64,000 nucleotides of DNA from an uncultured virus (IMG/VR IMGVR_UViG_3300006092_000199). Its lineage: Duplodnaviria; Heunggongvirae; Uroviricota; Caudoviricetes. The position numbers and the translations under genes were made by a program. Shown here one piece after another: positions 6,938-53,634 of this stretch (positions are counted from its first letter, which is position 1; the number at the start of each line of letters is the position of its first letter). Under the pieces are notes generated by a model. It ran no database searches. It worked only from the letters and a program-made list of their open reading frames with translations, and was not told the origin of the DNA. The stretch is from IMG/VR virus record IMGVR_UViG_3300006092_000199; one strand, written 5' to 3'.

Positions 6938-7513
6938 TTGGCCGATCTGTCAGTCCAGACTCACACGTGCGCGGGAGATCCATCGTTGACTGACACTGAC
7001 ACACATATCGTGGAGCGATCTCCAATTCGCTTCGATGATGCAGCGAAGGAACGAGTGATCAACTTCGTCAGGTCCAGCGGCTACTATCCAGGACTGATGG
7101 CCAAGGTCGCATCTGTCAGTCGCGAGACCATCCGTCTCTACATGAAGGAAGATCCTGTCTTCAAGGCAGCGATCGACGACGCGCTGGAGGAGAGGAATGC
7201 AGAGCTTGAGACAGAGGCTCGTCGTCGTGCTGTGGAGGGAGTGACCCGTCGCAAGTACGACAAGGACGGCAATCTGCTCGAGGAGGAGCAGGTGTACAGC
7301 GATCGTCTCATGGAGCGTCTGCTCGAGGCTGACATCGAGAAGTTCAAGAGCAAGAACCCATTCGCGAAGGATGGTGGAGTGGGAGGCGTGCTGCTCATCC
7401 CAGTGATCCCTGCTGAGAAGGCAGTGTCGATCGAGGATCTCTCAGCGAGACTGGAGAAGCTGAGCGTCACGCAGCGATCTCTCGAGGAGACAGAGGGTGG
7501 CACCAAGGAGTGA
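6938..7513 (+). CDS. terminase small subunit (putative; start uncertain)
   Basis: N-terminal HTH-like segment (AKVASVSRETIRLY), then DPVFKAAIDDALEE...LETEARRRAVEG...YSDRLMERLL, typical of TerS. Confidence 0.7.
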   Translation: MADLSVQTHTCAGDPSLTDTDTHIVERSPIRFDDAAKERVINFVRSSGYYPGLMAKVASVSRETIRLYMKEDPVFKAAIDDALEERNAELETEARRRAVEGVTRRKYDKDGNLLEEEQVYSDRLMERLLEADIEKFKSKNPFAKDGGVGGVLLIPVIPAEKAVSIEDLSARLEKLSVTQRSLEETEGGTKE

Positions 7514-7522
7514 TCCCTCCTG

Positions 7523-7566: not shown

Positions 7567-7638
7567 GGTGCCCGCTTGCCGCCTGACATCTGCAGGCCCA
7601 CGCTTTGGCATGGCTTTTGAGACGGAAGGAGATCGGCC

Positions 7639-7902
7639 ATGAAGAAGCACAAGTGGACCACTCGCCACTACCAGAGCGAGGCCCCCTATTTCTACGAGCG
7701 ACACCACCTGGTGTGGGAGGTCGACGGTCCGAGCCACGCGGTTGCTGGGATTGTCGCCCACTGCCACGTCCCTGACACCGAGGACTGGTTGTTCGACGGC
7801 GATGCCGACACCCACCCTGTCCTGGGTCCGGGCACCGGACTGGCACATCGCTGGGACGCCAGTGCCCTGTCGCTTGCGAAGCCCACACTGATCCAGGTTT
7901 GA
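7639..7902 (+). CDS. hypothetical protein
   Basis: AAGGAG RBS; 87 aa. Confidence 0.55.
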   Translation: MKKHKWTTRHYQSEAPYFYERHHLVWEVDGPSHAVAGIVAHCHVPDTEDWLFDGDADTHPVLGPGTGLAHRWDASALSLAKPTLIQV

Positions 7903-8100
7903 AGGCCGATGGTCGACCAGAGCACTGGTCGGCCTGGCTTTCTGCCAGACGCCAGAGAGATCCGTCCGTCGGCGACAGATCCATGATTGATCAATCTATA
8001 GATCATGACTGAGAGATCCATCGAGGGTGATCGGCTGATCGGTCTGCGAGAGATCGTGGAGGGTCAGCGACAGATCTCGAGACAGATCTCTCTGGAGCTT

Positions 8101-8463
8101 CGTTAACCTTAATAAGTAAGGTTAATAAGTAAGGTTAATTATTAAGGTTAACGCCGCATTAGGGTTAACCGTTAGGGTTAACGGAGAGTTAACGTTAGGG
8201 TCTCATTAACCTTAACGGTTAGGGTTAATGGAGACTTAACGCGCCGGTAGGGCCATTAACCATAGATCGGTAGGGCCGAGATTGAGAGATCGATCCGTTA
8301 ACCATAGATCAATCGCCGACAGATCGATCTGGCAGCTCTAACGATCTGTTAAGATCTGTCGCCCTATGCGCGTGCGCGCCCACATGATTAACGAGGGCCG
8401 AGGGCCGTTAACCCTCTGTTAACCATGCCTGCCACCGCCTGGTCGCGTTAACGGTCTGTTAAC
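8101..8463. promoter_or_regulatory. array of CtrA-consensus boxes (TTAA-N7-TTAAC) with AT-rich inverted and direct repeats
   Basis: perfect boxes at 8178-8193, 8225-8240, 8408-8423 and 8448-8463; near-match 8338-8352; many half sites; 15-bp inverted repeat 8101-8115/8139-8153. Confidence 0.75.
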
Positions 8464-8550
8464 AATTGGCGGCATATCCTTCGTCTCGTGGTTAGGGCGA
8501 TGCCCACCGCCCCTGGGAAATCCCTCCCTCGGAACTCAATGGAGACTACC

Positions 8551-8883
8551 ATGTCGAAGAAGAACACCCAGAAGTCCGCCCCCGCCGCCGCCCCCGTCGC
8601 GACCGCCCCCGTGATCGCCCCCGTCCAGAAGGGCAAGGCTGCTCCGTTCATGCAGCAGGTGCGCGAGCTCCTCTCCGGAGACGGCCACCCGGTCGCCTTC
8701 CTGTGCGAGAAGCTCGGTCTCTCGGACAAGGACGCGCGTGGCGTTATCGACGCTCTCCGCGCGAAGGAGGGGAAGGGCACCGTCCTGAACGTCTACTCCG
8801 AGAAGGCGGGTCGCAAGGTCTTCCGATACGTCGGTCTCGACGGGAAGGGCATCGCCGCCCCCGCCTCCGAGGCCCAGGCCTGA
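8551..8883 (+). CDS. small basic protein, possible (winged) HTH DNA-binding protein
   Basis: GGAG RBS, ATG at 8551; VRELLSGDGHPVAFLCEKLGLSDKDARGVIDALR followed by a beta-hairpin-like segment. Confidence 0.65.
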   Translation: MSKKNTQKSAPAAAPVATAPVIAPVQKGKAAPFMQQVRELLSGDGHPVAFLCEKLGLSDKDARGVIDALRAKEGKGTVLNVYSEKAGRKVFRYVGLDGKGIAAPASEAQA

Positions 8884-8891
8884 CGGTCCAG

Positions 8892-8913
8892 GGGCGAGGC
8901 CTCGGCCTCGCCC
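8892..8913 (+). other. GC-rich stem-loop between the two CtrA-proximal genes
   Basis: GGGCGAGGC-CTCG-GCCTCGCCC, perfect 9-bp stem. Confidence 0.55.
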
Positions 8914-8948
8914 TCCTCCCTCTCTCTCAGCTCTCAGGAGTCGCCCCC

Positions 8949-9140
8949 ATGCTCTCTCGCCCCTCGCTCTCCGCCCCCGCTCGCCCCTTCGGGCTTCGCG
9001 CTTCTGTGCTCGCTCCCGCAGAGCAGAGCGCCTCTCGCCTCCGCGCCGCCGAGCTCGACGCTGCGTGGCAGAATTTGTTCTGCGCCAGCGATGCCGACTT
9101 CGCGAGCGCGAAGGATCGGTTCGCCCGCGCGAACCACTGA
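8949..9140 (+). CDS. hypothetical 63-aa protein
   Basis: AGGAG RBS, ATG at 8949. Confidence 0.55.
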   Translation: MLSRPSLSAPARPFGLRASVLAPAEQSASRLRAAELDAAWQNLFCASDADFASAKDRFARANH

Positions 9141-9144
9141 TCCC

Positions 9145-9201
9145 ATAGGGTTAACGTCCCCCGCCTTCCCTCCAGGAGCGCAAAGGATCCGTTAACCCTA
9201 T
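9145..9201. promoter_or_regulatory. 12-bp inverted repeat containing GTTAAC half-sites
   Basis: ATAGGGTTAACG (9145-9156) / CGTTAACCCTAT (9190-9201); same TAGGGTTAAC word as in the 8.1-8.25 kb array. Confidence 0.6.
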
Positions 9202-9330
9202 CCGGGCGGCGGGGATCCTGCGCGTCAATCAAGATGGGACTGGACCCCTTCCCCTATTCCTGAGAGGGGACCCTAAGAGGCCCCAGGTCCCCGCTTGTCC
9301 CGCCACCCCACAGCATCCATCCTCCACGGC

Positions 9331-9570
9331 ATGAGCGACATGGTCCCAGTGCAGCCCGACAAGCGCCGTGGCATGGTGGTGCGAGCCGTCATCATCTCAG
9401 GGTGGATCATCACACTCCTCACGATGGTGGCTGTGATCGGATCGGCCATGTGGGCAGTGCTGTCGAAGGGCGCGGCCCCGGAGGAGCTCCGTCAGTGGGC
9501 GGGCGTGGCGCTCGGCTTCCTCTTCGGGACGTTCACCAGCATCGTCAGAGACTACATCAGCGAGGGGTGA
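9331..9570 (+). CDS. small membrane protein (2 TM)
   Basis: two hydrophobic stretches; preceded by TTGTCC-N17-CATCCT. Confidence 0.6.
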   Translation: MSDMVPVQPDKRRGMVVRAVIISGWIITLLTMVAVIGSAMWAVLSKGAAPEELRQWAGVALGFLFGTFTSIVRDYISEG

Positions 9571-9668
9571 TGGAGACGGTGCTGCACATCATCCAGATGA
9601 TGCCAGTGGCGCTGGTCCTGCTGGTGATGGGCATTCTCATCCTCAGCCTCGGGCGTGGAGCGCCGTGA
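9570..9668 (+). CDS. 32-aa single-TM peptide
   Basis: TGATG overlap; METVLHIIQMMPVALVLLVMGILILSLGRGAP. Confidence 0.45.
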   Translation: METVLHIIQMMPVALVLLVMGILILSLGRGAP

Positions 9669-9861
9669 CGAGGGCCATGGCACTGACCAGGTGAGCCTCC
9701 AGGGCATCCTCCATGGCGCGGGTGTTGGTGTGCTCGCCGGACTTCAACGGGCACGTGGTCCTGGCCATCTCCAGGGCCTTCTCAACTCGGAGCCAGGCGA
9801 TCTGGCGCTGCTCGTGGCGACGCTGGGCCTCCTCCGCGTAGCAGTCGTCATAGTGCCCCAT
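9643..9861 (-). CDS. hypothetical protein
   Basis: last gene of a coupled minus-strand block; GGAGG RBS on the minus strand. Confidence 0.55.
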   Translation of the reverse strand: MGHYDDCYAEEAQRRHEQRQIAWLRVEKALEMARTTCPLKSGEHTNTRAMEDALEAHLVSAMALVTALHARG

Positions 9862-10036
9862 CGCTGACCTCCACGAATGCGAGGAACACCCGCCCCTTCT
9901 CAGGGTTGAACACGCACTCCCAGTGGTGCCCCGGCGCGGGCGCGGGGAGCTCGACCGCCCCCTGGGCCTTGAAGGACCGCTCGCTCCCTGGGCGGGCGCG
10001 GCCCCCGGTTCCTCTGGCTGCCTCTGTGTATGGCAT
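9848..10036 (-). CDS. hypothetical protein
   Basis: ATG at 10036 overlaps the stop of the upstream minus ORF. Confidence 0.5.
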   Translation of the reverse strand: MPYTEAARGTGGRARPGSERSFKAQGAVELPAPAPGHHWECVFNPEKGRVFLAFVEVSDGAL

Positions 10037-10281
10037 CACGCCCCCTCGATCACACCAGTCAGGCTCTGCATGACTGTCTTCCGGTCCTGCGGCGAGTGGA
10101 GGATGACGCAGTTGTTCATCTCCACGAAGGTGTGGGCCTTCTGGCTCTGCGGGTCGACGGCCTGCCACATCCGGGTCACCGCGTCTGGGTTGACGAGCTG
10201 GAAGCAGTCACCGCCCTCCAGCTTGAGATACTTGCGGTCGGCGGGGTGCCAGACCATGTCGCAGTAGAGCATCTTCAGCAT
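10036..10281 (-). CDS. FlbD/SwrD-like small protein (putative)
   Basis: LVNPDAVTRM...TFVEMNNCVILHSPQDRKTVMQSL pattern; coupled start/stop. Confidence 0.5.
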   Translation of the reverse strand: MLKMLYCDMVWHPADRKYLKLEGGDCFQLVNPDAVTRMWQAVDPQSQKAHTFVEMNNCVILHSPQDRKTVMQSLTGVIEGA

Positions 10282-10514
10282 CAGTGCATGTCTCCTGTGA
10301 GGATGCGGACTACCTGCTCCATGCTCTCACGCATGACGAGGGCAGAGCGGTCCGTGGTGATGACGGTGCAGCCGCCGCCCTGCTCAGAGGAGTGCGGGGC
10401 GATCCAGACAACCTGCCAGGGGTTGACGAGGAGCGGCGGCAGATCGGGGTTGCGCGGGCGGATCGGCGTCTGGTCGTTGCCGATGGCCGATGGGCTGAGA
10501 GCGACGAACTTCAA
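10281..10514 (-). CDS. FlbD/SwrD-like small protein (putative)
   Basis: TTG start at 10514 after GGAGG; LLVNPWQVVWI...CTVITTDRSALVMRESMEQVVRIL. Confidence 0.55.
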   Translation of the reverse strand: MKFVALSPSAIGNDQTPIRPRNPDLPPLLVNPWQVVWIAPHSSEQGGGCTVITTDRSALVMRESMEQVVRILTGDMH

Positions 10515-10777
10515 GGGAGATCCTCCATGAACGCCAGGTCGCGGCCCATGAACTTGGGGAACACGCCTCCCTGGGAGTGGCTGTAGGTGACGAGGCCCTG
10601 GCGGTCCCGCGCGCACAGGAGGGCGGCGCGGCCAGCAGGCGTCACCGCGAGGGTGCCCACCGCGTCTATGCCATGGGCGGCGCAGACGCGGTCGACGTTG
10701 AGAAGGGCGACGCGCAGCTCGGCGAGAGGGTCCTTCTCAACCTGCACGCGGGCGTGGTCTTCGTAGTGGGTGCTCAT
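10511..10777 (-). CDS. hypothetical protein
   Basis: overlapping start/stop chain. Confidence 0.55.
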   Translation of the reverse strand: MSTHYEDHARVQVEKDPLAELRVALLNVDRVCAAHGIDAVGTLAVTPAGRAALLCARDRQGLVTYSHSQGGVFPKFMGRDLAFMEDLP

Positions 10778-11010
10778 GGTGTGATGTCCAGCGCGTTGGG
10801 GACGTTCTCAATCCGTGCCAGGCGGACGTGTCCGTACCCCTGGGCACTCTCGATGGTCGACTGGAAGTCGGCCATGTCCTCGGCGGTGAAGCCGGGTGGG
10901 TCCCGCTCGATTGAGACGATCAGGACGAGGGCGACCTCCTTGGTCGGGAGCGCCGTGTAGAAGGCGTTCTCAAGCTCGGTGGTCGTGGCGGTCTTGACGC
11001 CCCGCGTCAC
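10774..11010 (-). CDS. hypothetical protein
   Basis: overlapping start/stop chain; GGAGG RBS. Confidence 0.55.
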   Translation of the reverse strand: MTRGVKTATTTELENAFYTALPTKEVALVLIVSIERDPPGFTAEDMADFQSTIESAQGYGHVRLARIENVPNALDITP

Positions 11011-11285
11011 CGGAGCCTCCGGCTCTGCTTCGCAGCAGCGGCGGCCTCTGCCGCCTGGGTGTCGACGTCGAGGCCCAGGGCCTTGAGAGTGTCAGGCTTG
11101 TTCTGGGCAGAGCGGATGTGCACGCCACCCTCGATGATGACGAGGCAGCCTGCCTGGGCTCCGTCCTCGAAGACACACATGACGCGGGCGGGGTCGACAT
11201 CGACCTCGATGGACTTCTTGTCGAGCACCAGCAGCTGGTCGCTGATGGTGAGGGCGACCTGCGTCGCGCGGATTGTCTTGAGCAT
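11007..11285 (-). CDS. FlbD/SwrD-like small protein (putative)
   Basis: AAGGAG RBS, ATG at 11285; VDVDPARVMCV...CLVIIEGGVHIRSAQNKPDTLKAL. Confidence 0.55.
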   Translation of the reverse strand: MLKTIRATQVALTISDQLLVLDKKSIEVDVDPARVMCVFEDGAQAGCLVIIEGGVHIRSAQNKPDTLKALGLDVDTQAAEAAAAAKQSRRLR

Positions 11286-11388: not shown

Positions 11389-12873
11389 ATGCTGTTGACA
11401 GCAGAGGTTCAGACGGACCAGCAGGTGATCTGGCGACCCCAGGCGGGGTCTCAGGAGATATTCCTCACAACCAACATCCCAGAGCTGCTGTACGAGGGCA
11501 CGCGCGGACCCGGCAAGACGGACGCGCTCATCATGGACTTCTGCCGCGATGTCGGCGTGGGCCATGGCACAGCATGGAAGGGCATTCTCTTCCGGCAGAC
11601 CTACGCCCAGCTGACGGACGTGATCTCAAAGTCCAAGAAGTGGATCCCGCAGATCTGGCCCAGCGCCCGCTACAATCAGGCGGAGCACGTGTGGACATTC
11701 CCGCAGGGCGAGCAGCTCCTCCTCCGTCACTTCATGAAGGAGGACGACTATTGGAACTATCACGGCCACGAGTATCCATGGATTGGCTGGGAGGAGCTGT
11801 GCAACTGGGCGATGCCTGGCGGCTATCTCAGGATGATGTCCACGAACCGCTCGTCCACGATGGGCGTGCCCAAGCGCGTGCGCGCGACGACGAACCCATA
11901 CGGCCCTGGACACAACTGGGTGAAGCATCGCTGGAGGCTCCCGTCTCACCGCAACAAGATCATCACCGACTCACGGGATGACGACGGCCACCTGGAGGTC
12001 CCGCGCGGCTCGATCTTCGGCTCGATCTGGGAGAACCAGATCCTGCTCAGGGCGGACCCGGACTACGTCAACCGTCTCAGGTCGGGTGCCAAGAACGAGG
12101 CAGAGCTCAAGGCGTGGCTCCATGGCTCGTGGGACATCGTCGCTGGCGGCATGTTCGATGACGTCTTCGAGTACAAGTGGAACGTCGTGAAGCCCTTCTC
12201 CATCCCGCACACCTGGCGGCTCGACCGCAGCTTCGACTGGGGCAGCTCCAAGCCCGCGTCCGTGGGCTGGTGGGCAGAGAGCGATGGCAGCGACTACGTG
12301 GACAGCGAGGGCCGGACGCGATCGAGCGTGCGCGGCGACCTCCACCGGATCCACGAGTGGTACATCTGGAGCGGCAAGCCGAACGAGGGGAAGCGCATGC
12401 TGGCGGCGGACATCGCCCGAGGGATCGTGCAGCGGCAGGTCGGCTGGGGCATCCACAATCTCGTGAAGCCCGGCCCCGCCGACGCCTCGATCTTCGACGT
12501 TGAGAACGGCGTGTCCATCGCACAGGACATGTCGACGCAGGTGCGCCTCGACTCAGGGCGGGTCTATCCCGGCGTGCGCTGGGTGCCGTCCGACAAGCGC
12601 CCTGGCTCGCGAAAGAACGGCTGGGAGCTCATGCGCAAGATGCTGAAGGCCGCCCACCCGCCGAAGGGAGGAGGGCCGCGCGAGCACCCTGGGCTGTTCA
12701 TCCACGACTGCTGCGAGCACTTCATCCGGACAGTCCCGGTCCTGCCCAGGGACGACAAGGACATGGACGACGTCGACACCGACACCGAGGACCACATCGC
12801 GGACGAGACACGCTATCGCGTGCGGGCCTCCTCGATGCGTCACACCAGCGGTCGCTCGACGGGCTTGTTCTAG
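11389..12873 (+). CDS. terL: terminase large subunit
   Basis: Walker A-like GTRGPGKT, WEEL Walker B, ATTNPYGPGHNWVK, RNase H-like FDWG...DHIADETRY. Confidence 0.93.
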   Translation: MLLTAEVQTDQQVIWRPQAGSQEIFLTTNIPELLYEGTRGPGKTDALIMDFCRDVGVGHGTAWKGILFRQTYAQLTDVISKSKKWIPQIWPSARYNQAEHVWTFPQGEQLLLRHFMKEDDYWNYHGHEYPWIGWEELCNWAMPGGYLRMMSTNRSSTMGVPKRVRATTNPYGPGHNWVKHRWRLPSHRNKIITDSRDDDGHLEVPRGSIFGSIWENQILLRADPDYVNRLRSGAKNEAELKAWLHGSWDIVAGGMFDDVFEYKWNVVKPFSIPHTWRLDRSFDWGSSKPASVGWWAESDGSDYVDSEGRTRSSVRGDLHRIHEWYIWSGKPNEGKRMLAADIARGIVQRQVGWGIHNLVKPGPADASIFDVENGVSIAQDMSTQVRLDSGRVYPGVRWVPSDKRPGSRKNGWELMRKMLKAAHPPKGGGPREHPGLFIHDCCEHFIRTVPVLPRDDKDMDDVDTDTEDHIADETRYRVRASSMRHTSGRSTGLF

Positions 12874-26900: not shown

Positions 26901-27065
26901 CTGGTCGCAACGAAGAATGCCCAGGGGGCAGGTGCGAGCGGCGACATCAATGTGAATGTCGAGCTGAAGGCGCAGGATATGACGTCGTTCCGGCAGAATG
27001 CCGCCACGGTCGACAGCATGATGTACGCGGCGGTTGAACGTGCGAAGCGGAGGATCAATCGATGA
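23997..27065 (+). CDS. tape measure protein
   Basis: 1022 aa, Ala-rich; QLSQGLAKGTLNGDELRSVLEQ tape-measure domain; RYHTGG...AILQKGEEVL motif. Confidence 0.92.
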   Translation: MSNINKLVIVATIEGVKAVVSEISSIGDAAARTEGRASLLGKALGALGSAGVLAGFVKYSNEFTNLENKLKVVTSGTEELTNVTNKLYDIAQNTRTAYSDTAKLYQRVALAGQQLGNTQETNLRVTDLLNKSIIISGASSIEASNAMIQLSQGLAKGTLNGDELRSVLEQLPYVADLIAKHMGVARGELRQLGADGKITAQIVQESILGAGDSIDQTFSKMDMTIGQALTNVDSAFTKVIGEFNKVTGLSTGLAHAIDLVAKNMAVLMGAAGSLAAAFAVFKAAELVAWLSQLKNVVIGLNQVQVAGVGMSVTMTRLQLGLKIVGQAFMLAATEARAFALSNPFTAIAMALTVLLPLMYAYGDSIKLSSDGTVTFKSVVDELFGGIQQGLVPIMGTLGDSLQAVLGVFNTLLQVLGTLLLPFTTLGQKLVDVGQNGVSLGQIVNALAEGLAYMGRVLVALVIAPYRALAEVMGSLGLIAPEALDHIRAQTDGVLNLAQAARDAQQRMADYANGTSQATSASASAASQAAATSGAYGNLANASRNAGAAIKEKASYLLEEDIAYTKIAGGITTYVTNLTGLGTTLSGTKEAQSGLGQAIRMSADGINAITASEAYYAEQSKASAQHTDNLKGSVSTLDQKAVSPATTAMTSLGTSTAKAAGGLKDASTAATSLKESVAGSISGLNSQVTAMNNAATAARNLAAAYREAAAAAAALAAAKSASGSGGSQVQHNGGLVNSQAPIRYHTGGIVGTPMGPDEISAILQKGEEVLTRDDPRHVLNRGTAFGWQQGTGQWGTSANEYLTITRGMGSGANGVMDRLQWWTPLETITRNLQKAADATGQDQTLPDAQTSYVSSYGNLKAFTAAIQSFNAFDPFGQRIAQIQTGNQVSQMLGGGPQMDLGVGLNSLSNLQRLQGIFMDSLKADWVSKNDLENVLTAQQRSGSGSRDYQTLTQFDQGYKGQGPSTWQPDLVATKNAQGAGASGDINVNVELKAQDMTSFRQNAATVDSMMYAAVERAKRRINR

Positions 27066-27664
27066 TCATTGACGCGGTCAGGCTCCCCGTCGATGTGGAG
27101 CGTGGTGCAGAGGGTGGCCCCCTCTTCAGCACGATTGTCAACCGCACGGATGGTGGAGGAGCGATCACCAACCAGAATTGGCAGTACCCACTCTTCAAGG
27201 GCAACATCAGCTATGGCATCCAGAACACCAGCGACCTCGGCCTGGTGCGCGCCTTCTTCTATGCCCGCCGTGGCCGTGCTCGTGGCTTCCTGTTCCGCGA
27301 CTGGTCCGACTACATTGTCTCCGAGGCCGTGAGCATCGGCACCGGGGATGGGGTGGAGACAGACTTCAACTGCTCTGTCATCTATGATGACGACATCCTC
27401 CCCTTCACGCGCCCGATCACCCGTCCGGTCGAGGCCACGATGAATGTGTACGACAATGGCTCTCTGGTCAACCCGTCGCTGTGGAGCCTCCAGACCGGGG
27501 GTGTCGTCCGCTTCGTCACGCCGCCCACCAGCGGGCATGTGATCTCGTGGACTGGAGAGTTCGACATCCCGGTCCAGTTCATGACCGACCAGTTCAAGGT
27601 CGTGATGCAGACCTTCGAGGCAGGTGAGATCCCCAGCCTTGAGATCATGGAGGTTCGCGAGTGA
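27062..27664 (+). CDS. distal tail protein, DUF2460/TIGR02217 GTA-like
   Basis: GGPLFST, FFYARRGRARGFLFRDWSDY and GEFDIPVQF. Confidence 0.88.
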   Translation: MIIDAVRLPVDVERGAEGGPLFSTIVNRTDGGGAITNQNWQYPLFKGNISYGIQNTSDLGLVRAFFYARRGRARGFLFRDWSDYIVSEAVSIGTGDGVETDFNCSVIYDDDILPFTRPITRPVEATMNVYDNGSLVNPSLWSLQTGGVVRFVTPPTSGHVISWTGEFDIPVQFMTDQFKVVMQTFEAGEIPSLEIMEVRE

Positions 27665-28518
27665 GGACGCTTGGTGGAAGTCTCCAGGCTGCGATCGCGA
27701 CAGGCACGACCACTCTCTGCCGCCTGTTCACGATCACGCGCACGAGCGGGCAGGTGCTCCGCTTCACGGACTTTGACGGAGACGTCACGTTCGATGGCAA
27801 TGTCTACAGCGCCAACTCCTCCATCAGCATCACCAATGTCTCAACTGCCATCCAGGGTGGTGTGACGTCCACCAATGCCAAGGTCATCCTTGACGCCGAG
27901 GCTGGCGTCAGCTCAGTCGACTTCATCCGTGGCCGCTACGACGGGGCCACCTTCAAGGTCTCCTGGGTTGACTGGTCCAACCCATCCCTGGGTGAGATCA
28001 TCATCCTCATCGGTCAAATCTCCATCATCGAGGCGACCAACAAGGGGACTGGCAGCTTCGAGGTCCGTGGCATCCTCAATCGCGGCGACATGCGCATCGG
28101 CCAGTTCTACACGCCGGAGTGCACCGCGGATCTTGGAGATGCTCGCTGCACTGTCGATCTGACTCCGACCCTGATGACCGGGACGGTGGCCGCAGTCTCG
28201 ACCCGCACCAAGATCTCAGTCGACCTGTCCGGCGATCCCGCCGATGCCTACTTCTCATTCGGTGTGCTCACGTGGACGAGCGGCAACAACCTCAACCAGA
28301 GCATCGAGATCCTGTCTCAGGCGTATGTGTCGGGCCACGACCAGCTCGTCCTGGCGCTTGAGATGCCCGACGACATCGAGGTCGGCGACACCTTCGACAT
28401 CGTCGCTGGCTGCGACAAGACGAGGGGCACCTGCCAGACCAAGTTCTCAAACATAGCCAACTATCGCGGCTATCCCTTCGTCCCCGGCCCGGATGGCCTC
28501 AGTGACTCCTTCATCTGA
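27661..28518 (+). CDS. baseplate hub, DUF2163/BR0599 GTA-like
   Basis: CTADLGDARC and GCDKTRGTCQTKFSNIANYRGYPFVPG. Confidence 0.9.
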   Translation: MRTLGGSLQAAIATGTTTLCRLFTITRTSGQVLRFTDFDGDVTFDGNVYSANSSISITNVSTAIQGGVTSTNAKVILDAEAGVSSVDFIRGRYDGATFKVSWVDWSNPSLGEIIILIGQISIIEATNKGTGSFEVRGILNRGDMRIGQFYTPECTADLGDARCTVDLTPTLMTGTVAAVSTRTKISVDLSGDPADAYFSFGVLTWTSGNNLNQSIEILSQAYVSGHDQLVLALEMPDDIEVGDTFDIVAGCDKTRGTCQTKFSNIANYRGYPFVPGPDGLSDSFI

Positions 28519-28957
28519 AGAAGAGCTCCGCGCGCAACTGATCGAGAAGGCCAGGTCCTACATCGGGACCAAGTGGCGTCATCAGGGTCGCACTCGGCAG
28601 GGGATCGACTGCCTTGGCCTCATGCTGGTGCCCGCCTTCGAGCTTGGGTTGTGCGACTACCCAGACCAGTACAACTACCCTCGCCGCGCCACCAGCCGCG
28701 AGCTGATAGAGATCTCCCGCCTCTGGGCCCAGGAGGTTCGGCTCGGCCCAGGGGGCATCGACGCCATGAAGGACGGGGACGTCCTCGTGCTCCGAGACCA
28801 CACCTTCCCCCAGCACGTGGGCATGGTGACGAGCATGAATGGTCAGCGGAGCCTGCTGCACAGCTCGCTTGCCCATCGACGGGTCGTTGAGGAATACATC
28901 AACCAGGATCACCGCCAGAGGGCGTTGACGACGTTCAAGTTCAGGGCCTTCACATGA
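28493..28957 (+). CDS. NlpC/P60 family tail peptidase
   Basis: ARSYIGTKWRHQGR...GIDCLGL...HVG...LLHS. Confidence 0.9.
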   Translation: MASVTPSSEEELRAQLIEKARSYIGTKWRHQGRTRQGIDCLGLMLVPAFELGLCDYPDQYNYPRRATSRELIEISRLWAQEVRLGPGGIDAMKDGDVLVLRDHTFPQHVGMVTSMNGQRSLLHSSLAHRRVVEEYINQDHRQRALTTFKFRAFT

Positions 28958-31900
28958 CGATGTTTTGGACTGGCAGCGGGTTTGTCGACATCCCGCCCAC
29001 GATTGAGATCTTCGAGCCGCCAGATGATCGCTATCTGTCGGGCTACAAGATCACGGACAATGTCGACGGCGATGTGAAGACGTTCGGCCCTCGTCTCAAG
29101 GATCTCAACGTCCCCTTCTCGCTCTACGGTCTACCCATCCCGATCACGTTCGGTGTGCGTCGCCTGAACGGCAACATCATCTGGGCGCGGCCTCTCCGCG
29201 AGAGCATCCAGAAGAACAAGAAGGGCGGCAAGGGCGGACCGACGACCAAGTCGACCGAGTACAAGTATTTCGCGACGTTTGCCGTCGCCTTCGGCATCCC
29301 CGGCAACACTGACAGCGACAGTCGCGATGTCATCCGCATGTGGGCGCAGAACGCGCTCATCATGGATCGCCGTGGCTACGCCGCCGCCAAGTGGACTGGT
29401 CTCGACTATACCTTCTACAAGGGCGAGGCCACCCAGGTGCAGGATCCGACCATCGTCTCGTACGAGGGCGCGGATGTCACCCCGGCCTATCGCGACGTCA
29501 TGTACTGTGTGTTCCGCGACATGCCCATCGAGGACTTCAACAACTACATCCCCTCGATTGGCATCGAGATCGGTGACACGACCGCGCTGCAGTACATCAT
29601 CCAGAATATTGACACTCCGGCAGTCGAGGGCCTCCAGGCCGTCGACGCGGGCTTCGCCGACTTCACGCGCGGCACCTACTATGGTGTTCGCAGCGAAGAT
29701 GTCAATAGCCATGACTCTGTCATCCGATCTTACAACCTCGCTGGAGCGAGCTACCTCGGATCGACGACTGCCAACGACGACGGTGTCGGCTGGGACACCA
29801 ACAACGACCCCCTGGGCACCGCTCCACCAGCTCTCAAGCATGAGAAGGGCATCAGCGCCAACTTCAATTCGCTCGGCTACTGCCCCTGGCTCAACCTGCT
29901 CTGGGGCAAGCCGGACAAGCTCAACACAGGCGAGCCGTTCATGCTCATCGATCCCAGCTCGGGCATCGCTCGCTACTGGCTGGGGTGCCACATCTTCAAT
30001 GCGACGGCCCAGGACCCCAAGTGGCCGTCCATGACGAGCCTGACCTTCGGCCCCCTCAATGGCATGATCCCGCAGTGGGAAAATGCCATGTGCTTCAGGG
30101 CATACTCCTCCTTGTCACCAACCAGCTTCTTCATGATCTCGACAACCTACAACGACCTGGTTCTCTTGAAGCTGGACGACGTCATGAACCATCTGGACAT
30201 GGTCTGGTGGTCGGCCAACTGGGGCAAGGCCCGCTGCATGATCGAAGGTGAGCTCCGTCCATACGAGAGCGACTTCTTCCTTGTGAAGAACGGCAGCCCG
30301 CAGGTCTGGCGCATGGTTGTACGGGCGGCAGCCCGCCGCGTGGGCGCAGGCACATCTGCGACCTCTTCTGGTGTGGACGAGCCTGTGCTCAAGTACACGG
30401 CGAACGCCAACATCCACGCCATGCTCTACTACGCGGCGGACAACTCTCTCATCCTGTTCAAGACGAACGGGCACGCGGAGAAGGTCGACATTGAGACGTG
30501 GGCTCAGGTGTGGGACGTTGCCATCAGCGACTACACCTCAGTCGGTCCTGTCTACAGCATGCATCTCCACAACCTGGAGGGAGGCAACTATGCCTGGACT
30601 GCGAATGGCACCGTCCATGAGATGAACCTCGTGACTGGCTATGTCACTGACTGGTCCGAGGCCAGTGGCAGCTACATCGCCTCCGACAAGTACAGCGACG
30701 GTCGCAACTCCTCCATTGCTGGCTTGGCCACTTCCGCCTCCTCTGGCTCGCCCGGTTCGACGTCCAGCTCGGTGGACTACGCCCAGTCCACGCTGCTCTA
30801 CAACCGGATCAGCGACAGCCGCATGCCGCTGTCCGACTTCATCCTCGGCATGTCTCTCTACGCTGGTTTCCAGGAGAGTGAGATCTATATCGACCCGGCG
30901 ATCGATGACACCATCGACGGCGCGATCATCAGCAAGCTCACGAGCTACAAGGCGGTCATGCAGGCCATCTGCGTCGCCTATCGCATTGAGATGTTCGAGA
31001 GCGCGGGCGTCATCAAGTTCACCCGCCGCTCCCTGGGCTCTGGGGCGTCGACCTTCGCGGTTGTCGATGACGACCTGCTCATGCAGGACCCGAACCAGAT
31101 CAACAGTGAGAACCCGACCCTCCAGATCCGTCGCGAGGAGGAGCTGGCTGTTCCTCAGGAGGTCTCTCTCCGCTATATCGACAAGTCTCTTGGCTACCAG
31201 TGGAACATGCAGAGCGCCCACCGCTCGCAATTCATCACCACCAATGGCTCGGACGAGCAGATGAGCCTCGAGTTGCCGATCATCATGCTTGCCAGCGAGG
31301 CCAAGGAGATCTGCACCCGCATTCTCTGGCAGGCGTGGAACAGCCGAGTGTCCTACTCTTTCCGCGTCAGCCAGGAGTTCGTGGCAGTCGAGCCGGGTGA
31401 CTTTGGCACCCTCACTTCTCAGTCCAAGCTGTTCAACATCAAGGTGGCTCAGGTCACCTACAACACGGACTTCAGTCTCAACATCCAGGCCACCAACTCG
31501 ATTTCGGACGAGAGCCTGACGATCGTGGCCGACACTGGTGGTCAGGGAGATGACGCGCCCAAGGGGCCGTCTATCTCTGACATCTTCATCTTCGATGTGC
31601 CGCTCCTGCTCCCCGAGCTCGATGGCTCTGCGACCAGCAACTGGCCCTATTATGTCTATGTGGGGCCGATCAGCTACGAGCAGACCTGGGCTGGCGGAAA
31701 CGGCTTCGTCACGGCGGACGGCACCAACTACGACCAGATTGTCACGAACGTCGACACTGGTCTCGTGCTCGTCGCGAAGACCGTCCCGGACTTTGATGAA
31801 GGCACCTGGATGAGCTGGAACGACGACGCGGAGATCGTCTGCGTGCCCAAGGAGGGCGACATCGACCTGCTCGAGAGCGCCACCAAGGCCGAGGTCCTGG

Positions 31901-32763
31901 CCGGGGCGAACCTCGCCTTCTGGGGCGACAACGGGCGCTGGGAGCTGATTGCCTTCCAGACGGCGACGGACAACGGCGATGGCACGTTCACCCTGGGCGG
32001 TCTGCTCAGGGGCCTCCGGGGCACCGACTTCAACATGGACACCCACATCAAGGGCGACTATGTCGTCCTGGTGAACACCGAGCTCGTCGACGCGGTCGGC
32101 GCCAAGCTGACGGACATCGACCAGAGCCGCACCTTCCGCGCCGTGGGCTTCGGCCTCGAGCTGGCGGACGGGCTCAGCAAGACGACGACGCTCAGGGGCT
32201 ACGGGGCACTCCCCGTCGCGCCGACTGCCGTGACCGCAGAGCGTTCAATTGCCGACGCGACGGGCGACATCGTGCTCAGCTGGGACCGCCGTGGTCGCCT
32301 CATGCGCCCCATGGTCCCTGGGCAGGCCAATGCAGATCTCACGGTCAATGAGACCAACGACTATCTCGTCACGGTCTATCGCTGGCCGCACTATGACACC
32401 TGGACCTTCAGCTCAGGGCGGTGGCACGGCTCCGACACTGGCGTCGACGCCGACAGCTACACCATCGAGGTCACTGGTGCGACCACGACCACTCTCACCG
32501 CGTCGGCTTTGAGGGCGAACCAGATCTATGAGTACGAGGCTCCTGACAACCTGTACTCCTCGGGGTCGACCTTCTCCCAGCACGAGGCTGGATATGAGAT
32601 CGCAGCGAACGCCACCGCGAACGTGCAGATCCCAGACCTGGGCTACGACGAGTTTGTCGCCTTCAGGTCGATTGATGTAATGATCCAGCAGAAGACCACT
32701 GTCGGAAACGAAACTGGCTATGGTCCCGGACGTCGCATGACTATCGTGATCAAGGACACCTAG
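28954..32763 (+). CDS. tail tip/central fibre protein (GTA 'megatron'-like)
   Basis: YGLPIPITFGVRRLNGNIIW, PAYRD and WELIAF...LGGLLRGLRGT; 1269 aa. Confidence 0.85.
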   Translation: MTMFWTGSGFVDIPPTIEIFEPPDDRYLSGYKITDNVDGDVKTFGPRLKDLNVPFSLYGLPIPITFGVRRLNGNIIWARPLRESIQKNKKGGKGGPTTKSTEYKYFATFAVAFGIPGNTDSDSRDVIRMWAQNALIMDRRGYAAAKWTGLDYTFYKGEATQVQDPTIVSYEGADVTPAYRDVMYCVFRDMPIEDFNNYIPSIGIEIGDTTALQYIIQNIDTPAVEGLQAVDAGFADFTRGTYYGVRSEDVNSHDSVIRSYNLAGASYLGSTTANDDGVGWDTNNDPLGTAPPALKHEKGISANFNSLGYCPWLNLLWGKPDKLNTGEPFMLIDPSSGIARYWLGCHIFNATAQDPKWPSMTSLTFGPLNGMIPQWENAMCFRAYSSLSPTSFFMISTTYNDLVLLKLDDVMNHLDMVWWSANWGKARCMIEGELRPYESDFFLVKNGSPQVWRMVVRAAARRVGAGTSATSSGVDEPVLKYTANANIHAMLYYAADNSLILFKTNGHAEKVDIETWAQVWDVAISDYTSVGPVYSMHLHNLEGGNYAWTANGTVHEMNLVTGYVTDWSEASGSYIASDKYSDGRNSSIAGLATSASSGSPGSTSSSVDYAQSTLLYNRISDSRMPLSDFILGMSLYAGFQESEIYIDPAIDDTIDGAIISKLTSYKAVMQAICVAYRIEMFESAGVIKFTRRSLGSGASTFAVVDDDLLMQDPNQINSENPTLQIRREEELAVPQEVSLRYIDKSLGYQWNMQSAHRSQFITTNGSDEQMSLELPIIMLASEAKEICTRILWQAWNSRVSYSFRVSQEFVAVEPGDFGTLTSQSKLFNIKVAQVTYNTDFSLNIQATNSISDESLTIVADTGGQGDDAPKGPSISDIFIFDVPLLLPELDGSATSNWPYYVYVGPISYEQTWAGGNGFVTADGTNYDQIVTNVDTGLVLVAKTVPDFDEGTWMSWNDDAEIVCVPKEGDIDLLESATKAEVLAGANLAFWGDNGRWELIAFQTATDNGDGTFTLGGLLRGLRGTDFNMDTHIKGDYVVLVNTELVDAVGAKLTDIDQSRTFRAVGFGLELADGLSKTTTLRGYGALPVAPTAVTAERSIADATGDIVLSWDRRGRLMRPMVPGQANADLTVNETNDYLVTVYRWPHYDTWTFSSGRWHGSDTGVDADSYTIEVTGATTTTLTASALRANQIYEYEAPDNLYSSGSTFSQHEAGYEIAANATANVQIPDLGYDEFVAFRSIDVMIQQKTTVGNETGYGPGRRMTIVIKDT

Positions 32764-50587: not shown

Positions 50588-51454
50588 ATGGGACGCAACT
50601 ATGAGCGCCTGAGCATCGAGGACTTTGGCGCTCATCTCCTCCACACCGGGGACCTCGACCCCATCTACATCGCGCTCGACAAGATGGAGCTGGACCCTGT
50701 CCGGCTGTCGCAGTGGCTCGTGTCCTACTGGTGCCTCTATCACGCCGGGACCGCCTGCTGGATGGCCGATCAACCTGTGGGCCAGTTCTGGGACAACCTG
50801 ATGACCGCCGCTGTGAACACGGCAGAGACCCCCATCGGTGGTCGCTGGCCGCGTGGTCACGAGCGCCGTCACTTCCGTGGCCAGCAGGCCATCGACGGCG
50901 TGAACAGCCTCCGCGCACGACATCCCTCTGGGCCTGCCGACATGGTCGCTGGCTTCCCTGCTCTTCTCTGTGGACGACCGAGTGTGCCGTTCAAGGAGAT
51001 CAGCGAGCGTGCCCAGGAGGAGCGTGGCTTCGGTCCTTGGATCTCCTTCAAGATCGGGGACATGGTGGATCGCCTGGGGATTGTCCCGGTGAGCTTCGAC
51101 CAGGCCGAGGTCTTCATGTTCAAGGACCCGACCGAGGCCGCGCTGAAGCTGTGGCGTCTCAAGGCTGGTCTCCACGAGGACGCCCAGCCGAAGGATAAGA
51201 TCGGCGCCATCACGCAGGTGGTCGACTACCTGCGCATGAGGTTCAAGGACGAGACCGCGCCGCCCACTCACGAGCGGGCCGTGGACCTGCAGGAGATCGA
51301 GACGATCCTCTGCAAGTGGAAGTCTCACATGAACGGCCACTATCCCCTGCTGAACGACACGCTCGAGATCCGAGCTGGTCTGGCAGCCTGGGGCCAAGTC
51401 TCACCCATGGCCGCGCAGATGCGCCGCCTCATGCCGGAGGGGAACATCGCATGA
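50588..51454 (+). CDS. amino acid:DNA transferase (aGPT-Pplase2/ADDT family)
   Basis: GDLDPIY, RGHERRHFRG, HhH-like GFGPWISFKIGDM and ETILCKWKSH; M6/PaMx11-type context. Confidence 0.8.
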   Translation: MGRNYERLSIEDFGAHLLHTGDLDPIYIALDKMELDPVRLSQWLVSYWCLYHAGTACWMADQPVGQFWDNLMTAAVNTAETPIGGRWPRGHERRHFRGQQAIDGVNSLRARHPSGPADMVAGFPALLCGRPSVPFKEISERAQEERGFGPWISFKIGDMVDRLGIVPVSFDQAEVFMFKDPTEAALKLWRLKAGLHEDAQPKDKIGAITQVVDYLRMRFKDETAPPTHERAVDLQEIETILCKWKSHMNGHYPLLNDTLEIRAGLAAWGQVSPMAAQMRRLMPEGNIA

Positions 51455-51612
51455 CCTACATCACGCATCTGCTCGCCGCCGCCCTGGGCCTGGTCTGCGG
51501 CGCTCTGCTCATGGGCCTGGCCACCATGGCAAGCATGGACCACGGCCAATTCATCAACCGTGCTGAGAAGGGTGACCGTCTCACCATAATCCCGGAGCAG
51601 CTGAGACAATGA
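51451..51612 (+). CDS. small membrane protein within the modification cassette
   Basis: ATGA overlaps at both ends; N-terminal TM. Confidence 0.5.
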   Translation: MTYITHLLAAALGLVCGALLMGLATMASMDHGQFINRAEKGDRLTIIPEQLRQ

Positions 51613-52415
51613 AGGTTGGCATCGTCGGAGCCGGACTGTTTGGCTCGATCATTGGCCGCCACCTGATGGCCCAGGGGCACAGCGTGGCGATCATGGACTC
51701 ACGCGAGGAGGGCAGCGGGTCGAAGCCCGCCGCCTGTCTGATGAAACCGGGGTGGCTCTCCAAGATCCCGCAGCTGAACAAGTGTCTCGAGCTGCTTGAC
51801 ACCTACTATGGTGTCCGGGATATCTCATTCAATGTGAACGGGCTGCTCAACCAGACCGTCCACTGGGTCGACCCTCGCCGCGTGCTGAGCCTTGGCCATG
51901 TCTACAACACGACTGTCATGTCGGTCGATCCTGTCCGGGGGATCGTCGACACGCCCAGGGAGAAGTTCGAGTTCGACCACGTGGTCGTCGCGGCGGGCAT
52001 CTGGACGAACAAGCTGTGCCCCTGGACCGTCAAGGTGGAGCCGCGCTGGGGCACTGCCTTCCTGTGGCCTGAGCACGCCCAGAGCCACGTCCCGCCGTTC
52101 ATAAGCCAGTGGGCACCCTACCGCCAGGTGGTGGCCTTCCAGCGCGGGGACGGCCTCTGGGCAGGCGACGGCAGCGCCCTCAAGAGCATGACTCCCGAGC
52201 GCGAGCTCGAGTCACTCCGACGCTGCCAGGAGAAGCTTGACATATGGCAGCAACCCACTTTCTTGAGGGGTGCAAGGCCCTATGGTACACCAACACCAGG
52301 AGCGCCGTGTGTGCTTGACCGCGAGGGCAAGGTCACGGTGGCGACTGGTGGGGCGAAGAATGGGACCGCCGCCGCCGCGTGGTGTGCCCTGAAGATTGGA
52401 GAGTACCTTGCTTGA
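51609..52415 (+). CDS. FAD-dependent oxidoreductase/lyase (DAO/glycine oxidase-like)
   Basis: VGIVGAGLFG dinucleotide fold, VVVAAGIW, GARP and TGGAKNG. Confidence 0.85.
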   Translation: MKVGIVGAGLFGSIIGRHLMAQGHSVAIMDSREEGSGSKPAACLMKPGWLSKIPQLNKCLELLDTYYGVRDISFNVNGLLNQTVHWVDPRRVLSLGHVYNTTVMSVDPVRGIVDTPREKFEFDHVVVAAGIWTNKLCPWTVKVEPRWGTAFLWPEHAQSHVPPFISQWAPYRQVVAFQRGDGLWAGDGSALKSMTPERELESLRRCQEKLDIWQQPTFLRGARPYGTPTPGAPCVLDREGKVTVATGGAKNGTAAAAWCALKIGEYLA

Positions 52416-52869
52416 CAGCCCGTACATCATGCGCGAGGCTCGTGTGGAGGAACACGACGAGATCGCGCGGCTGGCGAAGACCAGCCCGTACACACGAGAC
52501 TTCACCAACAGGGTGATGTTCAGCAGCGACGCGGCCTATGCCAAGGGCTGGATCCGCGTCCTGATCAAGGACAAGAAGATCATCGGCTTCTACTGCATCC
52601 GCAACAAGGTGCGCGGAGACCGAGCCACGAAGCTCTACTTCATCACCGTCCATCCAGACTGGCGCGGCAAGGGCGTGGGTGAGATGCTGATGCTCGCACT
52701 CATGGAGCAGGCACGGCGGCACGGCGGCGTGATCGAGCTCGACGTCGCCAAGGACAACCGGGCCAAGTCATTCTACGACCGCCACGGCTTCCGAGTGGAA
52801 CATGGCGAGGCCCTGGGTGGAGCAGCATGGAGGATGAGATGGGACGCGCCCGCCTCCGTGTCACTGTAG
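52408..52869 (+). CDS. GNAT acetyltransferase
   Basis: ITVHPDWRGKGVG motif A and N..AKSFYDRHGF; TTG start inferred. Confidence 0.88.
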   Translation: MLDSPYIMREARVEEHDEIARLAKTSPYTRDFTNRVMFSSDAAYAKGWIRVLIKDKKIIGFYCIRNKVRGDRATKLYFITVHPDWRGKGVGEMLMLALMEQARRHGGVIELDVAKDNRAKSFYDRHGFRVEHGEALGGAAWRMRWDAPASVSL

Positions 52870-53165
52870 ACCGCTACGACATTCTCCGCTACGAGGCCGT
52901 CGAGTCAGGCGTCTTCGCCAGCGGGGACGAGTTCGACCAATTCGCGGATGGCACCCTGGTCAGCCGGGAGGTCTCCTATCGAGTGCAGGGGCTGACGTAC
53001 AACCCAGGGCACCTTCTGCTCGACGAGCTGGAGAACCTCCTGGACCAACTAGCGGAGATCATGGATGATCATCAACGTAAGAGGGACCAGCGGGTCCGGA
53101 AAGTCAACACTGCTGAAGGCGGTGATGGACCTGTACAAGGGACAGAAGCTCCGCATCAAGCGTGA
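52827..53165 (+). CDS. hypothetical protein
   Basis: fills the gap between GNAT and kinase; overlaps both. Confidence 0.45.
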   Translation: MEDEMGRARLRVTVDRYDILRYEAVESGVFASGDEFDQFADGTLVSREVSYRVQGLTYNPGHLLLDELENLLDQLAEIMDDHQRKRDQRVRKVNTAEGGDGPVQGTEAPHQA

Positions 53166-53634
53166 GGGCCGCAAGCAGCCGACAGGCTACGTGCTGAACC
53201 GCGCCGAGGGCGGTCGCCAGCTCTTCGTCCCTGGGCACTACGAGGTCGCCTGCGGCGGCTGCGACACGCTCGGAGGCTACGAGGAGAGCTACAGCATGAT
53301 CCGCGAGGCCGACGCCCAGGGGATGGACGTCCTGTACGAGGGACTGCTGATCAGCGGCGAGGCCCAGAGGCCGATCGACCTGAAGGGTGAGGGCCGCGAC
53401 ATCCGGGTGGTCGTCCTGACCACGCCCATCGAGGAGTGCATCGCCTCGATCAACGCCCGCCGTCAGGAGAAGCGCGGGCCGGACGCGCCGCCCGTCAAGG
53501 AGAAGAACACCCGCGCCAAGGCACGAGCCGTCGAGCTCGCTGTGAAGCGCATGACCGAGGCAGGCATCCCGTGCATCCCGGCTGATCGCGCCGGGGCGCT
53601 GGACCTGGTGAAGGAGCTGCTCAATGTCGGCTGA
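53065..53634 (+). CDS. P-loop kinase, putative 5-hmU DNA kinase
   Basis: IINVRGTSGSGKST and GHY...CGGCDT; position in the cassette. Confidence 0.8.
   Translation: MIINVRGTSGSGKSTLLKAVMDLYKGQKLRIKREGRKQPTGYVLNRAEGGRQLFVPGHYEVACGGCDTLGGYEESYSMIREADAQGMDVLYEGLLISGEAQRPIDLKGEGRDIRVVVLTTPIEECIASINARRQEKRGPDAPPVKEKNTRAKARAVELAVKRMTEAGIPCIPADRAGALDLVKELLNVG

Follow-up and report, generated by a model that had tools for sequence, protein, structure and literature searches.

A predicted host-CtrA control locus between the terminase genes of an uncultured YuA/phiJL001-like phage

Results

The insert between terS and terL

The stretch of DNA analysed here (the window) comprises 64,000 nucleotides of an uncultured virus, IMG/VR record IMGVR_UViG_3300006092_000199, and the element in question is an array of TTAA motifs, resembling binding sites of the host regulator CtrA, that lies between the genes for the small (terS) and large (terL) terminase subunits. 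terS (6938..7513, + strand, with a start at 6938 or 7055; phrog_4044, E 1e-21) and terL (11389..12873, + strand; phrog_979, ~59% identical to YuA-like phages) form the left and right borders of a 3.8 kb insert that carries the array. An 87-amino acid open reading frame (ORF) with no assigned function (7639..7902, + strand, an ORF call) is followed by an intergenic gap of 648 bp (7903-8550), by a gene for a 110-amino acid protein (8551..8883, + strand) and by one for a 63-amino acid protein (8949..9140, + strand). The latter two were already described, as a helix-turn-helix-like gene and its small neighbour, in a first-pass annotation made from the sequence alone, and both reading frames proved to be as described.

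A single cluster of TTAA motifs and CtrA boxes

TTAA occurs only 29 times in the 64-kb window (63% GC). Twenty-one copies start within 8103-8459, two at 9151 and 9192 and six elsewhere (Poisson P ~1e-34 for the cluster, scaled by the number of such windows), in agreement with the first-pass count of about 21 copies in 8101-8463 and rarity in the remainder, which holds the eight others. Four perfect TTAA-N7-TTAAC boxes, each with a G directly 5' of it, were located at 8178, 8225, 8408 and 8448, together with the near-match at 8338; these had been reported correctly, and three further one-mismatch boxes, at 8148, 8195 and 8298, had been missed. A scan with the consensus box returned the single dense peak that had been expected, since every box in the window that departs from the consensus by no more than one letter, eight in all with the four perfect ones, falls within 8148-8463. 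The last box ends 88 bp 5' of the ATG at 8551, close to the 90 bp originally estimated. The sites are thus concentrated at one spot of the genome, as judged by box positions and not by the entropy score of Mascolo 2022 (PMC9437464), and they are intergenic and promoter-proximal, as in the LPEG class of CtrA-regulated phage regions.

When 21 TTAA motifs were placed at random in the span, at least four N7 pairs arose in 471 of 20000 trials (2.4%) and at least five N9 pairs in 93 of 20000 (0.5%), and the N7 pair count taken alone is modest evidence only. Moreover, TTAA is scarce in this phage family whatever the host, with 5 copies in 48.7 kb of YuA and 2 in 50 kb of PaMx11, and its scarcity outside the array is thus no sign of CtrA avoidance.

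The array in related phages

In a close strain, L003, the sequence is identical to the window over 5846-8400 and 94% identical over 8629-9190; the 40 bp that hold box 8408 are missing, and the repeat arm encoded in the gene for the 110-amino acid protein is longer. Two diverged relatives were found, L028 (TerL 85%) and G002 (TerL 83%), which form a clade with the window (100/100 in the TerL tree). In L028 the insert likewise lies between terS and terL; the 110-amino acid gene is reversed and preceded by two perfect boxes, the homologue of the 63-amino acid gene has its own copy of the box and promoter, and a dense block of motifs lies downstream of the 110-amino acid gene. The G002 contig, which excludes its terS and lattice region, begins just 5' of a perfect box before the homologous gene and holds a second box 3' of the small genes. 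The nearest record, G001, is without the array region. Both diverged members of the clade, related phages of the kind in which the first-pass annotation had proposed to look for the array, thus have a perfect N7 box 5' of the homologous gene, and the boxes of the window, L028 and G002 keep the N7 spacing while their spacer letters have changed.

Because this arrangement differs among relatives, the array is read here as three separate parts: a promoter (8408-8480), a half-site lattice (8101-8260) and a conserved right-hand motif. The single 'CtrA-bracketed two-gene unit' of the first-pass annotation was accordingly abandoned, as in L028 the first gene is inverted, the second has a promoter copy of its own and the dense left block sits 3' of the first gene.

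A predicted CtrA-activated promoter

The proximal box (8448-8462) is followed, after 12 nt, by a -10-like TATCCT at 8475-8480, and this segment (8447..8480, + strand) is a predicted CtrA-activated promoter with a putative transcription start near 8487. If TATCCT is taken as the -10 element, the first base of the box falls at -38/-39, the position from which CtrA activates, and the layout is conserved in L028. In Caulobacter, the ctrA P2 promoter carries a CtrA box at -39 and is activated by CtrA, and transcription in predivisional cells is switched on from full motifs near -35 (PMC4287350). A box followed after 11-12 nt by TAnnnT occurs once in the window (12 nt), three times in L028 (11 nt) and once in phiJL001 (11 nt), and a search of 5900-11500 for sigma-70 consensus promoters gave none. 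The occurrence in phiJL001 (L030 27907-28141) involves its one perfect CtrA box, which lies before gp47, a 58-amino acid gene.

The distal box (8407..8427, + strand) carries a TTAACCAT extension and lies within a 40-bp unit (8406-8445). It has a counterpart in L028, and the unit is missing from close strains, as seen from a joint of 8405 to 8446 in sequencing runs X3 and X7.

The half-site lattice and its flanks

The lattice (8101..8262) consists of half-sites of the form RTTAACC[ACT]T[AG] on both strands at steps of 6, 7, 11 and 13 bp and contains the full boxes 8178 and 8225; its N9 pairs are extended half-sites placed head to tail. The relaxed half-site fits 13 of the 23 local TTAA motifs, against 0.14 expected from composition. 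It occurs 7 times in L028, 4 times in Delta, 10 times in Poludnitsa and 6 times in Ccr10, and was absent from the nine other sequences tested, among them G002, phiJL001 and RHph_I72. The strict form, TTAACCAT, has three copies in the window, all inside the array; it corresponds to a described ungapped CtrA motif (PMC6180460) and to the top SciP motif from chromatin immunoprecipitation (PMC4083442).

A blastn search with 7500-9700 matched 17 phage records via the lattice, and all 17 phages were isolated on Caulobacter or Brevundimonas. The gaps of these phages share 26-51 of the 166 lattice 10-mers, and those of YuA, CN2, Simon and RHph_I72 share 0-2 of 166. In ungapped comparison the closest likeness was to the Delta gap (61/85), and the Poludnitsa gap matched at 65/92. 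A first lattice pattern had no match; a later pattern scan of IMG/VR returned two contigs, a close strain and the unrelated Lacusarx/phiCbK-like phage L048. In L048 a box-plus-lattice module is repeated before a run of small genes (1-5720), with 19 perfect boxes in 9.4 kb and 21 copies of TTAACCAT. Clusters of TTAA also precede terS in RHph_I72 (L031 17362-17810; 10 in 400 bp) and CN2 (L033 36268-36900; 8 in 400 bp). These are without the extended half-site grammar, and a TTAA cluster alone is thus no CtrA signature.

As mentioned above, the lattice of L028 also lies 3' of terS, yet downstream of the inverted gene, which indicates that it is not the promoter of that gene. As part of the interpretation that we favour below as probable, it is predicted to be a docking array for the same host factor, separate from the promoter.

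To the left of the lattice lie GATC-rich degenerate repeats of the GCGACAGATC type (7950..8095), in which nearly every T is in a TG or TC context and which have a homologous flank in L028. The GATC-rich right flank (8263..8400) contains a TTAACCAT half-site at 8298 and the near-box at 8338, the latter with a promoter-type counterpart on the minus strand of L028. GATC is densest in 7950-8410 of the whole window, with 18 copies against a mean of 3.8 per 460 bp. The SciP motif TGTCGC, itself disputed (PMC4083442), occurs three times in the gap against 0.63 expected, but inside the GATC repeats, and no claim is made for it.

The 110-amino acid protein has a predicted winged-helix fold

The 110-amino acid product of 8551..8883 is a predicted winged-helix (DUF3489-like) protein, on the grounds of a structural model, Foldseek and 17 homologues, and the helix-turn-helix likeness first noted is thus made more specific. 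The model, built with 13 sequences, has helices at 31-41, 48-55 and 59-73 and strands at 78-83 and 88-93, that is, three helices and a hairpin, and winged-helix proteins rank first in Foldseek. DUF3489 (PF11994) was the top viral match (E 2e-3), with Atlas look-alikes at 0.83-0.85; the protein itself had no Pfam match above the cut-off and is not assigned to PF11994. A distant homologue in contig G005 passes the Pfam cut-off and scores as DUF3489/HTH_11; its gene is part of a two-gene unit that follows a box with one mismatch. The G005 protein in turn matches an unannotated homologue in the Pseudomonas phages Epa5 and Epa43. No TTAA occurs in the 5.2 kb around the Epa5 homologue (L045 ~2460-2750), which has a plain TTGCCT-N16-TAAGAT promoter (by eye). 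The boxes thus look like a host-specific addition and not like the winged-helix protein's own operator.

The Pro/Ala/Val-rich N-terminal arm (window 8570-8625; proteins P0001-P0013) is a variable tandem repeat, which gives proteins of ~110-154 amino acids in close relatives around a constant core. Matches to repeat proteins (P0020, P0023-26, P0028 and P0033, among 20 proteins) were set aside as low-complexity matches to the arm. Compared with L003 and L010, the two-gene unit (8460-9190) diverges by ~6% between flanks that are 99.9-100% identical, which suggests allele exchange. The 63-amino acid protein has four homologues at 67-97% and a 37% match in L028, and domain and family scans gave no family match for it.

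The right-hand element and other features of the insert

The right-hand element (9145..9220) is made up of an inverted half-site pair and a phage-specific core that ends in a G-run and GATCC. It is conserved in the window, L028 and G002, and L028 retains the TTAA spacing of 41 bp. The inverted GTTAAC half-sites annotated at 9145-9201 do form a perfect 12-bp inverted repeat (9145-9156/9190-9201, 33 nt between the arms); they are not a full CtrA box, however, and the conserved core covers letters foreign to CtrA. A pattern scan for the element returned three contigs, G002 and two unrelated chance matches that were dropped.

The rest of the insert (9331..11285) holds a 79-amino acid hydrophobic ORF on the + strand and seven small minus-strand ORFs, none with an assigned family. 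The 87-amino acid ORF had no tblastn match in L028, the L042/L043 loci or G002, and no Rfam match was obtained in 5900-11500 at E<=0.1. Directly 3' of terS, at 7520-7566, a 21-nt direct repeat is present in two copies 26 bp apart.

Contig depth was considered as a sign of terminal redundancy or genome ends, but was judged a weak hint only, as expression or pooled strains are also possible. In run X3 depth was 93 (5846-7003), 235 (7088-8324), 163-184 (8295-9199) and 119-131 (9170-12779), and in X13 it was 87 for contig 8253-9215 against 15-35 for the other seven contigs listed. Depth here is one figure per contig, from the contigs of runs X2, X3, X7 and X13 (4 of 20 listed) over 4000-14000; depth is as high as 170-190 in X3 bins further to the right, coverage in X7 is low and X2 is possibly the source. 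An invertible segment, for which the inverted repeats of the lattice and 9188-9200 and the L028 inversion could be envisaged as signs, was also rejected, there being no recombinase and no strand-change joint among those shown. The inversion in L028 is treated as an evolutionary rearrangement.

Phage lineage

The phage is YuA/phiJL001-like, with a TerL 56-60% and a polymerase ~50% identical to those of YuA-like phages. YuA-type TerL, polymerase, primase-helicase and modification cluster occur in the same order as in Mesyanzhinovviridae, an assignment that comes from gene matches and not from formal taxonomy, the deep branches of the TerL tree being open. Judged from a close strain, the genome is ~1 kb longer than the window. 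No integrase, CI or repressor pair family was found among the 86 of 87 called genes scanned with PHROGs and/or Pfam, a scan that covers the genome except for this ~1 kb. This agrees with the first-pass annotation. The idea of a 'main decision module' that it built on the missing integrase and CI is nevertheless unsupported, since no correctly classified Mesyanzhinovviridae genome is reported to carry an integrase (PMC11946847).

The control genomes were covered in part: 48.7 of 58.7 kb of YuA, 50 of 59.9 kb of PaMx11 (without the terminase region), 50 of 62 kb of CN2, 50 of 63.6 kb of phiJL001 and 50 of 55.7 kb of RHph_I72. There was no perfect CtrA box in the covered parts of YuA, PaMx11 and CN2, nor in Simon.

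Two diverged AT-rich (TC)n/(AG)n elements, alike at 89 of 115 aligned bases, precede terS (6772-6897) and the helicase gene (40852-40973), with a stretch similar to the one before terS in L028; they are possible origins or late/replication promoters. A stand-alone GmrSD N-terminal (DUF262-type) domain gene lies at 5390-5968, among the early genes of this hypermodifying phage.

Host

Among 256 gapped 5-mers, GANTC, the CcrM site (PMC4287350), shows the strongest depletion in the window, with an observed/expected ratio (O/E) of 0.34. The ratio is 0.27 (RHph_I72), 0.30 (Delta) and 0.77 in alphaproteobacterial phages and 0.81-0.92 in YuA, PaMx11 and CN2, and in this comparison across six phages the depletion may serve as a marker of host class. 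GAATC/GATTC occurs once in the window against ~40 expected and GACTC/GAGTC is merely halved, so that avoidance is mainly of GAWTC. Of only 51 GANTC sites genome-wide, five lie in 6638-6962 upstream of terS and one more at 6399; those upstream of terS could mark a methylation-sensitive promoter.

Further evidence on host class comes from a gene-transfer-agent-like tail tip (27062..32763, + strand; DUF2460, BR0599, Rcc01698-like), whose genes match mostly phages of Caulobacter, Rhodobacter, Brevundimonas and Roseobacter. An endolysin search of genomes gave seven mixed matches, full-length only in two Bartonella records, and was not decisive. Activated sludge and wastewater are the sources of the sequencing runs that contain at least half of the stretch. 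The host is thus probably alphaproteobacterial and, within that class, most likely a Caulobacterales cell. Sensing of the swarmer/stalked state, as first proposed, requires a dimorphic host, and such a host is no more than suggested.

Thymine hypermodification genes

A PaMx11-type thymine hypermodification cluster of six genes (50588..55527, + strand) matches PaMx11 gp46-gp51 at 37-52% in the same order, with the Pfam families ADDT, DAO, GNAT, HMUDK_hel and thymidylate synthase. Amino acid:DNA transferase, FAD oxidoreductase, acetyltransferase, 5-hydroxymethyldeoxyuridine kinase and deoxyuridine monophosphate hydroxymethylase are thus all encoded in one cluster, and the phage is predicted to hypermodify its thymines. 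The gp46-51 pathway of PaMx11 produces a hypermodified thymine (PMC8989533). In M6, TG and TC seem to be the targets of the modification (PMC6449724), and what remains is turned into plain thymine in the virion (PMC8989533). TTAA half-sites are without TG or TC steps, and if PaMx11-type specificity is the same as that of M6, incoming DNA should be readable by CtrA.

The fraction of T in TG or TC context is 11% in the lattice, 79% genome-wide and 87% in the left flank. Across the genome TC/GA is over-represented and TA under-represented, a bias that may account for the scarcity of TTAA. The low TG/TC content of 8101-8470 was rejected as a special depletion, as it is due to the TTAA words themselves (0.59 without them), and the AT-rich gaps of YuA and Simon are TG/TC-poor too. 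Depletion beyond GC content was seen only in G002 1-880 and, weakly, in L028. The small-gene unit of G002 (L020, 1-880) has a TG/TC content of 0.43 against 0.61 (P ~4e-11) and ends at the conserved right-hand motif.

Discussion

Taken together, the comparison with relatives strengthens the CtrA interpretation of the first-pass annotation, with binding as a prediction. The region is probably a locus under host-CtrA control in a lytic phage of the YuA/phiJL001 type, where phosphorylated CtrA (CtrA~P) would activate the promoter at box 8448 and thereby a small regulator. CtrA~P would bind this box, which stands in for a -35 element, and would switch on the winged-helix gene and the 63-amino acid gene. 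Box 8408, gained or lost among strains, would tune the response, the winged-helix protein would act as a phage transcription regulator that relays the host signal, and the lattice would offer a second docking array for the same host factor, of a kind also present in Brevundimonas and Caulobacter phages, in their gaps and terminal repeats. The motifs, their conservation, the promoter geometry, the predicted fold class and the modification genes are read from the sequence; CtrA binding and activation, the host, the timing and any delay of lysis are what we infer.

Several observations weigh against this interpretation. N9 pairs are enriched at least as much as N7 pairs, the extended half-site pattern was picked after the data had been seen and its copies may be duplicates, and the collinearity with Poludnitsa is marginal, 7 of 150 shuffled segments being as good; since the match barely beats the shuffles, a shared grammar and not shared descent is claimed. 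The G002 box ends 19 nt 5' of a separate sigma-70-like promoter (TTGCAA-N17-TATGTT, by eye) and does not occupy its -35 position. As regards the protein, the mean predicted local distance difference test score of the model is 63 (core ~70-80), no Foldseek match reached E<=0.001, and the link to Epa5 is weak and transitive via G005 (29 aligned residues between window and G005, 42% identity between G005 and Epa5). As regards the host, G002, of the same clade and with boxes, shows no GANTC depletion (O/E 0.87), the depletion, here mostly of GAWTC, can instead stem from a restriction enzyme, and the best phage matches of the endolysin are Pseudomonas prophage lysozymes (catalytic domain only). CtrA, moreover, controls motility and not the cell cycle in many alphaproteobacteria (PMC9437464).

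The lattice with its GATC-rich flanks could be envisaged as a replication origin or a packaging/entry signal gated by CtrA or another host factor. This concerns 8101-8260 only and is compatible with CtrA control of the winged-helix promoter, which would then be a side matter. In L028 the lattice still follows terS despite the inversion of the winged-helix cassette, it is AT-rich with direct repeats on its flanks, CtrA inhibits replication at Cori (PMC4083442), and the family is described as using headful packaging (PMC11946847). However, the phage has two other AT-rich elements, before terS and the helicase gene, at positions that match those of such elements in YuA-like phages. A search of 7900-8550 that allowed one mismatch gave neither a DnaA nor an IHF motif, there is no skew switch at the array, and the repetition of the L048 lattice before many small genes fits transcription control better. 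Such a role is possible but unlikely. It is rather improbable that CtrA binds but represses, or is soaked up by the array, the genes being on once CtrA has been cleared, although DELTA_120 is repressed by CtrA (PMC9437464), the lattice is most like the Delta gap and the sigma-70-like promoter of G002 may work without CtrA. The proximal box would sit on the -35 position, with no TTGACA-like element, which is an activating arrangement, and one genome copy would provide few titration sites until replication is under way.

The sites might also be operators of a phage protein, the winged-helix protein or the terminase, with their likeness to CtrA sites a convergence of AT-rich palindromes. The winged-helix gene adjoins the sites, the N9 spacing departs from the CtrA consensus, short TAAGTAAG repeats precede terS in YuA and CN2, and the core of the right-hand element is phage-specific. 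Delta, Poludnitsa, Ccr10 and L048, however, carry the same lattice, and a search with the winged-helix protein of the window gave no match in any cultured phage at E<=1. In addition, the Epa5 homologue has no TTAA nearby and the repeats of YuA and CN2 show an overlap of no more than 10 bases, leaving this the least probable of the alternatives.

A bolder proposal can be put forward as one joint claim, to which we would give only a small chance: that the lattice is an unmodified, host-gated replication/packaging element with the winged-helix protein as relay. The lattice would then be a distinct, unnamed cis-element common to unrelated alphaproteobacterial phages, a deliberately unmodified, host-readable island beside a heavily modified GATC-repeat fence, situated within the terminal redundancy by terS. 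Host CtrA would gate replication or packaging directly, and phage DNA chemistry would time the reading by CtrA (plain T in the virion, 5-hydroxymethyl-U during replication). If true, lytic deferment would have its first named relay in the winged-helix protein driven by CtrA.

Returning to CtrA control of the promoter, we regard the locus, on the sequence comparisons above, as a new example of a published way for phages to read the host cell cycle and not as a new switch. With no isolate or host in hand, it is one more predicted instance of CtrA control of phage genes. What is new is a CtrA target with a predicted DNA-binding fold, and the presence of thymine-hypermodification genes that should spare TTAA, which raises the question of whether a thymine-reading host regulator can act on a genome with chemically replaced thymines. 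The clade offers a natural series, with a box gained or lost among strains, an inverted cassette and no box beside the Pseudomonas-phage homologue, and short fragments from it suit testing in laboratory Caulobacter with existing reagents. A literature search of titles and the starts of abstracts found no report on CtrA control in this lineage.

CtrA sites in alphaproteobacterial phages, with lytic deferment as the proposed outcome, have been published as the first-pass annotation stated: Mascolo 2022 described the site signature in at least five phage lineages and CtrA binding and control at Delta and phiCbK sites, with DELTA_120 repressed and phiCbK genes activated, lytic deferment itself still being a hypothesis and the tested targets being without known function (PMC9437464). 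Like the Delta-type region, the window has nearly all its TTAA motifs in one intergenic stretch, with small unknown genes, near the packaging module and with the same half-site grammar. It differs in belonging to another lineage (~65 kb, YuA-type core), in its position between terS and terL and not between divergent arms, and in a promoter geometry that predicts activation, in contrast to the repression of DELTA_120. The predicted DNA-binding fold and the hypermodification genes also set it apart from the targets in that paper, and the parts of its text consulted do not mention hypermodification (PMC9437464).

In the phiCbK-like terminal repeats (CbK_gp005, gp018) and Cp1R7A-A1 gp19, as in the window, a full box precedes a small gene with predicted activation, and Ccr10 has similar TTAGGG-TTAA repeats (28/31). 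Those sites, however, belong to large, unrelated phages, in which they are located in long direct terminal repeats, and no such repeat was shown in the window. As in Caulobacter ctrA P2 (PMC4287350), the 5' end of the box would lie at ~-39 and the box would replace a -35 element, if TATCCT is the -10 element; unlike ctrA P2, the predicted promoter of the window precedes a phage gene and has a start site deduced from the sequence. DUF3489 (PF11994) proteins resemble the window protein as Atlas look-alikes and as its top viral Foldseek match, but the window protein stays below the Pfam cut-off. Mesyanzhinovviridae (YuA, PaMx11, phiJL001, Epa5) share its TerL, polymerase, primase-helicase and thymine-modification cluster. 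In contrast to the window, however, YuA, CN2 and phiJL001 have terS directly next to terL, and the non-alphaproteobacterial members have no CtrA box in the covered parts, while phiJL001 has one box with the same geometry.

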